Positions 11,983 through 14,823 of a stretch of DNA of 64,000 bases are shown one piece after another. Below the pieces are notes generated by a model. That model ran no database searches, was not told where the DNA came from, and saw nothing but the letters and a program-made list of their open reading frames with translations. A program made the translations under genes and the position numbers. The stretch lies in the NCBI GenBank assembly GCA_964646445.1, contig CAZYDW010000005.1, forward strand, positions 1,150 through 65,149, written 5' to 3'. Source of the DNA: an uncultured Bacteroides sp. (GTDB lineage Bacteria > Bacillota > Clostridia > Oscillospirales > Acutalibacteraceae). Within the stretch, counting starts at the first letter, position 1, and every line of letters begins with the position of its first letter.

Positions 11983-12032
11983 CAGGCAGCTGTTATATAT
12001 AAAATGTAATAATATATAATATAATATATTAC

Positions 12033-12058
12033 GGGGCGGATGTTATCTGCTCCTTTTT
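12033..12058 (+). terminator. intrinsic terminator
   Basis: GGGGCGGAT/ATCTGCTCC stem followed by TTTTT. Confidence 0.7.
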
Positions 12059-12153
12059 ATTGAAATATCTGTGTTGAATTTTATTTCGTAGCTAAATAAT
12101 ATATAAAGAGATACTGAGATTAATTATTATTCTCTGTATTTTTTTTAAAAAAA

Positions 12154-12217
12154 CCTATTGACAAAGTAGGCAATATGGTGTATATTATATAAAAAAGAAA
12201 CCTACTAAACAAGTAGG
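12154..12217 (+). promoter_or_regulatory. metY-cysK sigma-A promoter with two palindromic operators
   Basis: TTGACA (12158)-17 nt-TATATT (12181); CCTATTGACAAAGTAGG at 12154-12170 and CCTACTAAACAAGTAGG at 12201-12217. Confidence 0.8.
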
Positions 12218-12232
12218 TAATGGGGGTTAAGT

Positions 12233-12295
12233 ATGATTTATACAGTTATCATCAGGCAAAAAGATGACCGAATGTACTTTCGATGTTGCATATAG
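12233..12295 (+). CDS. putative 20-aa leader peptide MIYTVIIRQKDDRMYFRCCI
   Basis: GGGGG SD 6 nt before the ATG; tandem TGT TGC codons; TAG TAA double stop; lies in the metY 5' leader. Confidence 0.55.
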   Translation: MIYTVIIRQKDDRMYFRCCI

Positions 12296-12410
12296 TAAAA
12301 ATTTTGAACGCTGTCGGTTCTTTTTGCTCCCATTAACTCGCACCGCGAGCAGCTGCAAACGAACCCCTCAAAATTTGCTGCGGCATAATTTTGAGATGTC
12401 TTAATTTACA

Positions 12411-12494
12411 TTATACGCCTTGTCCGGCTGCAGCAAGTCGTATAATAATTTTAATAAACTATTTGCAGTCGGAAAGGCTATGGAAATTATTATG
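12411..12494 (+). repeat. ~85-nt structured leader element, copy 1 (before metY)
   Basis: Near-identical to 13811-13896; a 13-position hairpin whose loop is complementary to the segment at the SD. Confidence 0.85.
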
Positions 12495-13781
12495 TCAGAT
12501 TATAAATATCATTTTGAAACACTTCAGCTCCATGTAGGTCAGGAAGAGGCGGACCCTGTAACAGATTCAAGAGCTGTACCGATTTATCAAACTACATCAT
12601 ATGTTTTTCACGATTCCGCACATGCCGCTGCACGCTTTGGTCTTACTGACGCCGGCAATATTTACGGCAGACTTACAAACTCAACTCAGGATGTTCTTGA
12701 AAAAAGAGTTGCTGCTTTGGAGGGCGGCGTTGCGGCGCTGGCACTTGCGTCAGGCGCTGCTGCTATAACCTACACAATTCAGGCATTGGCGCAGAAGGGC
12801 GATCATATTGTCGCGCAGAAAACAATTTACGGCGGCAGCTACAACCTGCTTGCACATACGCTTCCTAATTACGGTGTGGATACAACCTTTGTGGATATAC
12901 ATAATCTTGATGAGGTGACCGCGGCAATCCAACCGAATACAAAAGCAATTTTCATTGAGACCCTCGGTAATCCCAACAGTGACATTCCGGATATTGATGC
13001 TATTGCACAGATTGCTCATAAGCATAACATTCCGGTTGTTATTGATAACACCTTCGCAACACCGTATTTAATTCGTCCTATTGAACATGGTGCTGACATT
13101 GTGGTTCATTCCGCTACTAAGTTTCTCGGCGGACATGGCACGACACTTGGAGGCATAATTGTAGATTCCGGTAAATTTGACTGGAAAGCAAATGCCGACA
13201 GATACGCTCCGATTGCCAAAGCAAATCCAAGTTATCACGGCGTTTCTTTTGCAGATGCGGCAGGTCCTGCGGCATTTGTGACATATATTCGTGCTATCCT
13301 GCTTCGTGATACAGGTGCGACGATTTCTCCGTTCAACGCATTTCTTCTTTTGCAGGGCGTGGAAACATTATCACTGCGTCTTGATCGGCATGTGGAAAAT
13401 ACAAAGAAGGTCGTTGAATATTTGGCAAAGCATCCGAAGGTTGAAAAAGTCAATCACCCATCACTGCCGGAGCATCCGCAGAATGCTTTATATAACAGGT
13501 ATTTTCCAAACGGAGGGGCTTCTATCTTTACATTTGACATCAAAGGCTCTCAGGAAGAAGCATGGAAATTTATTGACGCGCTGGAAATATTTTCGCTGCT
13601 TGCAAATGTTGCCGATGTAAAAAGCCTTGTAATCCATCCGGCAACTACAACTCACAGTCAGCTATCTGCGGATGAGCTTAACGACCAGGATATTCATCAA
13701 AATACAATTAGGCTGTCCATCGGAACAGAGCACATTGATGATATAATCGCTGACCTTGAGCGTGCATTTTCACAAATATAA
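12492..13781 (+). CDS. metY: O-acetylhomoserine/O-acetylserine sulfhydrylase
   Basis: FETLQLHVGQ, IYQTTSYVF, YGRLTN, HSATKFLGGHG, ANVADVKSL; alternative start at 12480. Confidence 0.93.
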   Translation: MSDYKYHFETLQLHVGQEEADPVTDSRAVPIYQTTSYVFHDSAHAAARFGLTDAGNIYGRLTNSTQDVLEKRVAALEGGVAALALASGAAAITYTIQALAQKGDHIVAQKTIYGGSYNLLAHTLPNYGVDTTFVDIHNLDEVTAAIQPNTKAIFIETLGNPNSDIPDIDAIAQIAHKHNIPVVIDNTFATPYLIRPIEHGADIVVHSATKFLGGHGTTLGGIIVDSGKFDWKANADRYAPIAKANPSYHGVSFADAAGPAAFVTYIRAILLRDTGATISPFNAFLLLQGVETLSLRLDRHVENTKKVVEYLAKHPKVEKVNHPSLPEHPQNALYNRYFPNGGASIFTFDIKGSQEEAWKFIDALEIFSLLANVADVKSLVIHPATTTHSQLSADELNDQDIHQNTIRLSIGTEHIDDIIADLERAFSQI

Positions 13782-13810
13782 TTATTTAGTAAAATAGTGT
13801 GAAAATTCCG

Positions 13811-13896
13811 TTATACGCCTTGCCCGGCTGCAGCAAGTCGTATGGATAATTTTTAATAAACTATTTGCGGCCGGAAAGGTTATGGAAATTATTATG
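13811..13896 (+). repeat. ~85-nt structured leader element, copy 2 (before cysK)
   Basis: Differs from copy 1 by a few substitutions and small indels. Confidence 0.85.
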
Positions 13897-14823
13897 GCAT
13901 TATTTAAATCAGCACTCGACCTTGTCGGTAATACACCGCTCGTTGAGGTATCAAATTTTTCAAAGGAAAACAATCTTCAGGCTAATGTGTTTGCAAAGCT
14001 TGAATACTTAAATCCGGCAGGCTCGGTTAAAGACCGAATTGCTAAGGCAATTATTGAGGATGCAGAGAATAAGGGCTTACTTAAACCCGATTCTGTTATA
14101 ATTGAGCCGACAAGCGGAAATACAGGCATCGGTCTTTCGTTTGTTGCAGCTATCAAGGGATACAGAATAATTATTACAATGCCTGAAACCATGAGCGTTG
14201 AAAGACGCAATCTTATGAAGGCATATGGCGCCGAGCTTGTTTTGACCGAGGGTTCAAAGGGAATGAAGGGTGCCATTGAAAGGGCAGAGGAGCTTTCAAA
14301 GGAAATTCCCAATTCCATTATCGCAGGTCAGTTTGTTAATCCTGTAAATCCTCAAACACATAAAGAAACAACCGGTCCCGAAATCTGGAATGATACACAG
14401 GGTAATGTTGATATTTTTGTTGCCGGTGTAGGTACAGGCGGAACAGTCAGCGGAGTGGGTGAATATCTTAAATCTCAAAATCCCGATATAAAAGTTGTTG
14501 CTGTTGAGCCGGCAGCGTCACCTGTGCTTTCTAAGGGCGTAAGCGGTGCGCACAAAATTCAGGGTATCGGTGCAGGCTTTGTTCCCGATACACTTAATAC
14601 AAAAATATATGATGAAGTAATTGCGGTTGAAAATGACGACGCATTTAAATATGCAAAGGCTTTTGCAAGTCAGGAGGGTGTGCTTGTCGGCATTTCAAGC
14701 GGTGCAGCACTCTATGCTGCTAAGGTGCTTGCAGACAGACCTGAAAATGCAAATAAAAATATTGTTGTTGTTTTGCCGGATACAGGTGACAGATATCTTT
14801 CAACACCTCTTTTCAGCGATTGA
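13894..14823 (+). CDS. cysK: cysteine synthase A
   Basis: NPAGSVKDR, EPTSGNTGIG, GVGTGGT, HKIQGIGAG; alternative start at 13882. Confidence 0.96.
   Translation: MALFKSALDLVGNTPLVEVSNFSKENNLQANVFAKLEYLNPAGSVKDRIAKAIIEDAENKGLLKPDSVIIEPTSGNTGIGLSFVAAIKGYRIIITMPETMSVERRNLMKAYGAELVLTEGSKGMKGAIERAEELSKEIPNSIIAGQFVNPVNPQTHKETTGPEIWNDTQGNVDIFVAGVGTGGTVSGVGEYLKSQNPDIKVVAVEPAASPVLSKGVSGAHKIQGIGAGFVPDTLNTKIYDEVIAVENDDAFKYAKAFASQEGVLVGISSGAALYAAKVLADRPENANKNIVVVLPDTGDRYLSTPLFSD

Follow-up and report, generated by a model that had tools for sequence, protein, structure and literature searches.

Does a 20-codon open reading frame (ORF) with two tandem cysteine codons, lying in front of metY and cysK in an uncultured clostridial bacterium, encode a leader peptide that lets ribosomes sense the supply of sulfur amino acids? 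The ORF lies in a 64,000-nucleotide stretch of contig CAZYDW010000005.1 (GenBank assembly GCA_964646445.1; Acutalibacteraceae), which as a whole is called the window here, and it is located between a sigma-70 promoter with two operator palindromes and the metY-cysK genes. An earlier note on this DNA had proposed ribosome-mediated cysteine sensing, with the reservation that two Cys codons might be due to chance. Each element of its description could be confirmed in the sequence: a GGGGG Shine-Dalgarno (SD) sequence, an ATG at 12233 that opens a frame of 20 codons, an internal Met codon (12272-12274) preceded by CGA (12269-12271), Cys codons at positions 18 and 19 (TGT at 12284-12286 and TGC at 12287-12289) flanked by CGA (12281-12283) and ATA, and a TAG stop codon (12293-12295) followed directly by TAA (12296-12298). 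We estimate the chance of a tandem Cys pair in a 20-codon frame at roughly a few percent. By itself the ORF is weak evidence for a regulator, because nine ORFs of at least 20 amino acids overlap the same 520-nucleotide stretch; judging by the alignments, it is conservation that lifts it above chance. The comparisons reported here indicate that the ORF is a genuine and widely conserved regulatory leader peptide for sulfur amino acid genes, and that it probably represents, at this locus, a widespread and so far uncatalogued family of leader peptides through which ribosome-mediated attenuation controls metY.

The control of amino acid biosynthesis in Firmicutes is generally ascribed to T-boxes, riboswitches and protein regulators rather than to leader peptides. 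Neither a T-box nor an S-box had been noticed at this leader, and a search with the Rfam models, which include both, bears this out, with no match to the window at the gathering score and none for positions 12000-12520 at E<=10. Elsewhere in the genome there are one SAM-I riboswitch, five T-boxes above the cut-off and two more just below it.

The comparison suggested in the earlier note, of the regions upstream of metY in related genomes, gives a clear pattern. We found metY in 102 of 121 genomes of the genus and collected 97 upstream regions, 80 of which carry a homologous short ORF with an SD sequence, ending 15-100 nt before metY. Among the remaining 17 loci, metY follows nifU directly in eight, a promoter and operator are present without the ORF in another eight, and one lies at a contig end; the ORF is kept in 80 of the 88 promoter-proximal loci. 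Both initiation signals that stand between the promoter and the regulated gene in the window, the SD sequence and the ATG, are kept in all 80. The N-terminal part of the peptide is variable across the genus and the tail is conserved, with endings such as ...KNQRMCFRCCK, ...SSYxRMCRC and ...FEMRMC(x)RCC, or ...LLRQNFRFGRM followed by CCCC, CFCC, C, WRCC or an immediate stop. Between the Arg-Met pair and the stop codon, the 80 orthologues hold no Cys codon in nine cases, one in nine, two in 26, three in 32, four in three and five in one, so that at least one is retained in 71 and at least two in 62, against a proteome level of Cys of about 1.8%. The last eight or so codons of those 62 combine an invariant Met with two to five Cys, compared with one Met and two Cys in the ORF of the window, and the run of consecutive Cys, CC in the window, ranges in relatives from no Cys up to CCCC. 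This conservation, in 80 of 97 loci of the genus and in other taxa, argues against the suspicion that the two Cys codons arose by chance, and the lack of conservation that the earlier note had named as its refutation was not observed.

The ORF also appears to evolve as a coding sequence, since gaps between its conserved blocks are multiples of three and the Arg, Phe and Gly codons of a conserved N-F-R-x-G stretch vary synonymously. For example, in the window and the subset of genus loci in which the distance was measured, CGAATG and CGATGT are separated by 9, 12, 15, 18 or 24 nt; every one of these values is divisible by three, which is what translation of the frame would predict. When the 53 distinct versions of N[FY]RxGxMx are compared, all six codons occur at the first Arg (AGA 16, CGC 17, CGT 13, AGG 3, CGA 3 and CGG 1), four at the Gly and two each at Phe and Asn, and this synonymous variation points to selection on the amino acids. 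The Arg before the Met follows a different rule: it is CGA in 51 of 51 versions, and the Met itself is present in 53 of 53. CGA, a codon that the earlier note had remarked on, is seldom used in this genome, with a frequency of 1.8 per 1000 codons and a share of about 5% among Arg codons. The codon immediately 3′ of the Met is Cys in 30 of the 53 versions, a stop in nine and something else in 14. As far as these alignments reach, the universal feature of the family is thus the CGA-AUG (Arg-Met) pair, with Cys codons as usual but non-obligatory companions. The sensed amino acid may be Met, or Met plus Cys, because CGA-AUG is invariant, Cys follows Met in only 30 of 53 versions and one member precedes a gene for a MetN-like methionine importer. 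The proposal of ribosome-mediated cysteine sensing is therefore upheld in part: the conserved ORF, its Cys codons and the pairing or terminators predicted in relatives speak for ribosome-mediated control, whereas specificity for Cys is called into question by the invariant pair being CGA-AUG.

The wider family emerged at the level of the peptide. The ORF had seemed specific to the genus when searched with a strict nucleotide pattern, CGAATGTNNTTTCGATG, which matched five times in 401 genomes of the order (in this genome itself, in one other member of the genus and three times outside it, the last three being judged, uninspected, to be chance-like), and this candidate conclusion was rejected once a peptide-level search had revealed the other members. 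The same upstream ORF (uORF) was present in about 34 of 80 metY loci taken from a diverse set of named public genomes, including Roseburia lenta NSJ-9 (MNYFDELVHFRMCSWRCCRKAEMR), Faecalibacterium prausnitzii (MEMKLIWNELLHSNFRCGRMCREGAEHLAVTCEMPSCARMCTGM), Treponema (MKFYFEKLVRENFRNGRMRACCLFC and MSHIQYFEKLVRENFRNGVMCLCCCR), an uncultured Clostridia metagenome-assembled genome (MAG) whose uORF, MERNFFEKLVRENFRFGRMCRDRKSA...VRMCCRLSAGI, is close to that of the Mogibacterium MAG L194, and various Oscillospiraceae and Lachnospiraceae. The alignment consensus of the family is MxxxFxxLxRxNFRxGRMCxRCC. NFRxG, near the putative stall site, is conserved by amino acid in this wider family; the peptide of the window is a diverged member (IIRQKDD-RM-YFRCC) that lacks NFRxG and keeps R-M...R-C-C.

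A search that was independent of metY leads to the same kind of locus. A DNA pattern for N-F-R-x-G-CGA-ATG, in which metY played no part, was run against 251 genomes sampled across Clostridia and matched 16 of them, in 15 of 157 genera, compared with one match for the reversed-pattern control. In 11 of the 12 loci inspected, metY begins 25-75 nt after the uORF. The twelfth has an ABC ATPase next, for which the best family is MetN (361 bits, below the model cut-off and far above other families), and this case suggests a small regulon and points to methionine. At this locus (L213, from a Clostridia genome of the same family), the leader peptide, MKNYFEQLVRSNFRCGRMFCSGAVCVRVNSPCLV at 1468-1572, precedes the MetN-like ABC ATPase and its permease (1675-2664) in place of metY. 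The 40 diverse metY loci searched for an S-box contain none. In an uncultured Pseudobutyrivibrio (L134), the metY uORF is preceded, at a distance of about 400 nt, by a TwoAYGGAY RNA (RF01731, 89.9 bits, at 122-286).

Folding predictions suggest how such a peptide could act on metY. The minimum-energy folds of the genus leaders contain a single long helix in which an anti-SD stretch and CGAAUGUG, within the last ten or so leader codons, pair with CACAUU...SD before metY. The anti-SD sequence tracks the SD type clade by clade: metY SD UAAAGGAG is faced by CCUCUUUUA (codons S-S-F), AAGGAG by CUCUUUGAAAUG (F-E-M), and CGAAAGGAAA by either UUUCCGUUUCG (N-F-R-F-G) or CUUUCGAUGUU (C-F-R-C), the last of these being exactly complementary to AACAUCGAAAG. 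In the closest leader clade, CTTTCGATGTT is likewise exactly complementary to the metY ribosome-binding site (RBS), AACATCGAAAG. Across 76 unique leaders the metY SD has a mean probability of being unpaired of 0.31, rising to 0.60 when the ORF tail is masked in imitation of a paused ribosome and to 0.42 with an N-terminal mask of equal length, and on average 61% of its pairing goes to the ORF tail. The pairing register differs between clades, and we therefore compared cognate with non-cognate duplexes instead of counting covarying columns: the 3′ part of the ORF and the RBS give means of -13.2 kcal/mol for cognate pairs, -10.0 for non-cognate pairs and -7.1 +/- 2.5 for shuffled ORF parts. Transcription termination was considered as the outcome in the genus and rejected, as none of 79 genus leaders has a terminator-like site between the uORF and metY. 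Among higher-GC relatives, L169 (F. prausnitzii) and L132 have an intrinsic terminator after the uORF, made up of a GC-rich hairpin and a U-run.

Ribosome-mediated attenuation would be the most economical reading of these sequences and predicted folds, and it is most likely that the family lets ribosomes sense the supply of Met or Cys. When supply is ample, the ribosome would terminate at the end of the leader and the SD-sequestering helix would re-form. When charged tRNA-Cys or tRNA-Met is scarce, it would pause on AUG-UGY and the Cys codons that follow, covering the anti-SD strand; the metY SD would then be freed and metY translation would rise. In relatives of the F. prausnitzii type, where the same ORF stands before a terminator, the arrangement would amount to classical transcription attenuation, with the paused ribosome covering the anti-antiterminator strand. 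The uORFs of Faecalibacterium (L169, L148, L162, L163 and L175) are longer, at about 44-50 codons, and contain two R-M-C sites, the second adjoining the stop codon, and in L169 a clear intrinsic terminator comes after it; these versions would constitute a two-site attenuator variant.

Several known systems resemble this arrangement. In mycobacteria, ribosomes stalled in the Cys tract of polycysteine leaderless small ORFs (the 'Cys ribulon') block a duplex that sequesters the downstream RBS (Canestrari et al. 2020, bioRxiv 10.1101/834739). These also are short upstream ORFs with Cys codons near the end, preceding Cys-metabolism genes, and the same mechanism is predicted here for the genus. However, members of the metY family have an SD sequence and are not leaderless, occur in Clostridia and Treponema, regulate metY, bear the hallmark CGA-AUG-UGY with NFRxG upstream of it, usually have two or three Cys codons and sometimes none, and in some relatives precede a terminator; the distinction is one of features. 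In Rhodobacterales a conserved uORF ahead of cysS, the uORFC-8-2 motif, contains two Cys codons in tandem and has been read as ribosome-mediated attenuation (Brewer et al. 2021, PMC8632094), although the setting there is a cysteinyl-tRNA synthetase gene in alpha-proteobacteria with a terminator stem, and peptide, gene and phylum all differ. Cys leader peptides have been predicted as well for the cys operon of Mycobacterium and P. acnes and for cbs of B. longum (Seliverstov et al. 2005, PMC1262725). Those actinobacterial leaders are similarly short ORFs whose Cys codons form runs close to the stop, before Cys genes and without obvious terminators, but differ in phylum, genes and peptide. Translational attenuation of ermC and cat likewise depends on a ribosome stalled in the leader that remodels a helix hiding the downstream SD, but the stall is drug-induced and dependent on the nascent peptide, whereas the presumed signal for metY is Met or Cys supply. 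The family would thus work like the mycobacterial, Rhodobacterales and actinobacterial leaders but belongs to none of them, because it has an SD sequence, a different and longer conserved peptide, another target gene and other host phyla.

The family is apparently undescribed. Scans of eight leader peptides against Pfam and NCBIfam returned no family, a search of a large protein database with a 50-amino-acid member returned 21 unnamed proteins, and we found the family in none of Rfam, Pfam, NCBIfam, the named proteins of a large collection or the searchable literature, whose coverage excludes subscription journals. Its hosts include prominent gut anaerobes such as Faecalibacterium prausnitzii, Roseburia and many Oscillospirales and Lachnospiraceae, as well as Treponema, and its recognition would improve the annotation of sulfur-metabolism control in gut microbiome genomes. 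It would also provide a testable case of Met or Cys sensing by the ribosome, with translational (SD-sequestering) and transcriptional (terminator) versions of one peptide.

The locus in the window departs from its relatives in a way that the earlier note had overlooked: nearly all of the leader 3′ of the ORF (12298-12494) consists of a dispersed-repeat copy, which stands in place of the native leader-to-metY spacer and RBS. A BLAST search of the 1.68-Mb genome with the repeat gave 56 matches, and 47 copies can be recognised by their 3′ end. The listed copies end ...tttgcagccggaaaggctATGgaaattattATG, after which comes the coding sequence of a gene or, in tandem arrays, another copy; beyond 35 of the 47 ends, the in-frame sequence stays open for at least 60 codons. 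Full copies measure about 280 nt, and they begin with a hairpin, GTGTGAAAAATCACAC, that directly follows the native SD of the host gene. In the metY copy about 85 nt are missing on this left side, the hairpin among them, and the copy adjoins the stop codons of the leader. None of the genus relatives compared has the repeat at the metY site. Apparently, the repeat inserted at the metY start and a later deletion joined the leader stop codon to the repeat interior. The whole leader folds strongly (z = -5.0), but this is largely a property of the genome-wide element and not of a sulfur-specific RNA. The structured RNA 3′ of the ORF was considered as a dedicated sulfur leader or attenuator and rejected, being a dispersed repeat with 47-56 copies before unrelated genes.

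The repeat deserves description in its own right. It is modular, ranging from about 85 to 280 nt; its left hairpin reads GTG-TGA, a start followed by a stop, and its right end, ...gcagccggaaaggctATGgaaattattATG, gives the host gene a new SD within a hairpin and a start codon. Copies precede unrelated genes in the orientation of the gene, sometimes in tandem, and the repeat is multi-copy throughout the genus with no Rfam entry; it might be a mobile 5′-UTR (untranslated region) cassette, a REP/MITE-like element or a regulatory RNA. Other GC-rich structured insertions lie between the leader ORF and metY in four relatives (L054, L068, L081 and L097), and small repeats seem to have landed in this spacer repeatedly in the genus. 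The locus of the window shows that a dispersed repeat can overwrite half an attenuator.

What, then, remains of the attenuator in this genome? In the prediction, metY uses the SD supplied by the repeat, GGAAAGG (12471-12477), which is enclosed in the hairpin that the repeat itself forms (CCGGCUGCA/UGCAGUCGG plus GCCUU/AAGGC), and the coupling of metY to the leader is uncertain. The leader is perhaps no mere relic, because its core is conserved, its final codons have gained complementarity to the repeat and the ORF is predicted to pair with the repeat, although these points are suggestive only. At 20 of 21 positions the core, CGAATGTACTTTCGATGTTGC, agrees with that of L022, a relative, whereas the repeat copy beside it differs by about 10% from the copies most like it. 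The last codon and stop read ATA TAG, as opposed to AAA TAA in relatives, and add complementarity to AACTAT in the repeat; the duplex of the ORF tail with the RBS region of the repeat is predicted at -18.1 kcal/mol. In addition, a pairing is predicted between GCAAAAAGA-ug-ACCGA (12256-12271) and UCGGUUCUUUUUGC (12314-12327). Over its whole length, the ORF forms with the repeat module a predicted duplex of -26.2 kcal/mol, compared with -18.2 +/- 3.5 for codon-shuffled ORFs, and a C-to-T change at 12314 strengthens this pairing, which reaches -20.7 kcal/mol with other repeat copies. Through these newly gained contacts, between 12256-12271 and 12314-12327 and between the ORF tail and 12460-12477, the intact leader would probably still modulate expression; this is the least certain step of the proposal. 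The balance of these predictions tips slightly toward a leader that still functions in this genome.

Several observations weigh against attenuation by this leader, in the family or at this locus. The support is wholly computational; the window sequence was not found in any public sequencing run, and metatranscriptome contigs on the F. prausnitzii leader are mixed-strain fragments with no usable 3′-end signal. The Wilcoxon P values of the SD-pairing test overstate independence, the leaders being phylogenetically related. Nine orthologues of the genus stop right after the Met with no Cys codon, and a simple starvation sensor needs neither amino-acid-level conservation of NFRxG nor an invariant rare CGA. 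At the locus itself, the partition function predicts the metY SD to be 97% paired within the repeat and 0% with the ORF tail, the native partner strand CACAUU...SD has been lost, and the ORF-repeat duplex is marginal, being matched by about 3% of codon shuffles. The pairing of the SD within the repeat and the loss of the partner strand are what would be expected if the family were a real attenuator but the ORF of the window an uncoupled relic, metY being governed only by the operator repressor and the repeat's SD hairpin (-26.6 kcal/mol). The loss of the leader in eight species of the genus that nevertheless kept the operator and promoter, and in which it must therefore be dispensable, fits the same account. 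We regard it as unlikely: the ORF, its SD and its core have stayed intact while the adjacent repeat copy diverged, and both the ATA TAG ending and the change at 12314 add to the pairing between ORF and repeat.

The conservation that a starvation sensor leaves over could be explained by a nascent-chain arrest module, in which N-F-R-x-G-R(CGA)-M would bring the ribosome to a halt, either at the junction of Met and Cys or on the stop codon. Nascent-peptide arrest has precedents of the TnaC, SpeFL and ErmCL type, and in plants CGS1, an enzyme of methionine synthesis in the same Cys/Met PLP (pyridoxal phosphate) family, is subject to SAM-induced arrest through its MTO1 region; that system is eukaryotic, lies within the coding region, responds to SAM, has no sequence relation to the leaders and bears on this explanation only. 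Conservation of N, F, R and G through synonymous codons, the invariance of the rare CGA and of the Met, and the persistence of Cys-less ...GRM-stop versions in at least eight species of the genus and in other families all hint at more than simple codon starvation. However, the nucleotide conservation of CGAAUGUG could stem from its place in the predicted helix with CACAUU, and the clade of the window has lost NFRxG (IIRQKDD, KNxKNQ) and kept the Cys-rich tail. Arrest is a proposal from sequence that we hold to be rather improbable; it is a similarly doubtful suggestion that peptide and rare CGA together stall the ribosome so as either to amplify sensitivity to Cys-tRNA or Met-tRNA or to sense methionine, homocysteine or SAM. 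If true, this would be a prokaryotic counterpart of CGS1 MTO1, spread with metY across gut Clostridia and Treponema. Two further explanations are very unlikely. A free-standing, trans-acting Cys-rich peptide, whether binding metal, serving in redox reactions or being the precursor of a modified peptide, would suit a conserved motif with several Cys residues, but the ORF always lies between the promoter and metY (once before the MetN-like gene), overlaps the SD-sequestering helix or precedes a terminator, has a C-terminal tail varying from 0 to about 30 residues, matches no Pfam or NCBIfam family and has no maturase or transporter genes nearby. An RNA-only element, such as a riboswitch or protein-binding leader with an incidental open frame, would agree with the nucleotide-level conservation of CGAATGTG and CGATGTTG and with the strong fold of the leader; against it stand the spacing by multiples of three, an SD and start codon at the proper distance in about 80 species, the six-fold synonymous variation at Arg, and the want of any fold common to clades beyond pairing to the RBS, the good fold in the window coming mostly from the repeat. 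As for a chance ORF with two chance Cys codons, for which the crowding of this AT-rich stretch with other ORFs might speak, conservation in about 80 species of the genus and across families, and a motif-first search that landed beside metY in 11 of 12 cases, have effectively refuted it.

Ribosome-mediated attenuation would not be the only control at this promoter. A 17-bp palindrome, CCTAyT-N5-rGTAGG, occurs twice at the metY promoter and twice before nifS (at about 14999 and about 15034), and in a genome scan that allowed zero or one mismatch with both TAGG/CCTA arms intact it was found only at these two promoters. Palindromes resembling it stand before metY throughout the genus, as they do at 53 of 80 diverse loci. 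Downstream of cysK, nifS-nifU-nadA lie behind the second operator-bearing promoter. A putative repressor binding the palindrome, probably of the Rrf2 type, presumably ties metY-cysK to Fe-S cluster assembly and would add a layer of transcriptional control common to metY and nifS-nifU. The 5′ UTR of the leader, at about 40 nt, contains the second operator and the SD before the ATG. Coordinates are collected in the table.

Features of the metY-cysK leader region (positions in the window; a dot marks features without strand)
Feature	Position	Strand	Basis and remarks
Sigma-70-type promoter, TTGACA(12158)-17 nt-TATATT(12186)	12158..12186	+	11 of 12 consensus matches; conserved in relatives
Operator palindrome 1, CCTATTGACAAAGTAGG, containing the -35 box	12154..12170	.	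Read from sequence; genome scan; conserved before metY across the genus
Operator palindrome 2, CCTACTAAACAAGTAGG, just 3′ of the predicted transcription start	12201..12217	.	Sequence, genome scan and relatives
Leader-ORF Shine-Dalgarno, GGGGG	12222..12226	+	6 nt 5′ of the ATG; mostly GGAGG/AGGAG at the same place in orthologues
Leader ORF, MIYTVIIRQKDDRMYFRCCI followed by TAG	12233..12295	+	Read from sequence; homologues in the genus and in diverse taxa
Conserved core, CGA ATG TAC TTT CGA TGT TGC (R-M-Y-F-R-C-C)	12269..12289	+	CGA-ATG invariant; equivalent region in relatives is part of the anti-SD strand
5′-truncated dispersed-repeat copy	12298..12494	+	Searches of relatives with 12140-12500 and of the same genome
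Hairpin of the repeat	12424..12477	+	CCGGCTGCA (12424-12432) pairs with TGCAGTCGG (12464-12472), plus GCCUU/AAGGC; predicted -26.6 kcal/mol
metY (O-acetylhomoserine sulfhydrylase)	12492..13781	+	TIGR01326, 621 bits, above cut-off
Second, shorter repeat copy between metY and cysK	13803..13896	+	Same-genome matches
cysK (cysteine synthase A)	13894..14823	+	TIGR01139, 450 bits; alternative start 13882

Both downstream genes, metY and cysK, belong by their TIGR01326 and TIGR01139 assignments to the sulfur amino acid pathway that is presumed to be sensed, and their adjacency is kept in 35 of 36 genus loci. The metY start at 12492 corresponds to the MSDYKY start of relatives, and an in-frame ATG at 12480 also lies within the repeat. 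Noted together with the operator palindromes was the loose end of a metatranscriptome contig placed on the F. prausnitzii locus, which reads AAACCTATTGACAA. In the eight species in which metY stands behind nifU (L039, L042, L046, L047, L059, L079, L103 and L105), only an SD sequence lies between the two genes, there is no leader, and metY is fused into the Fe-S assembly operon.

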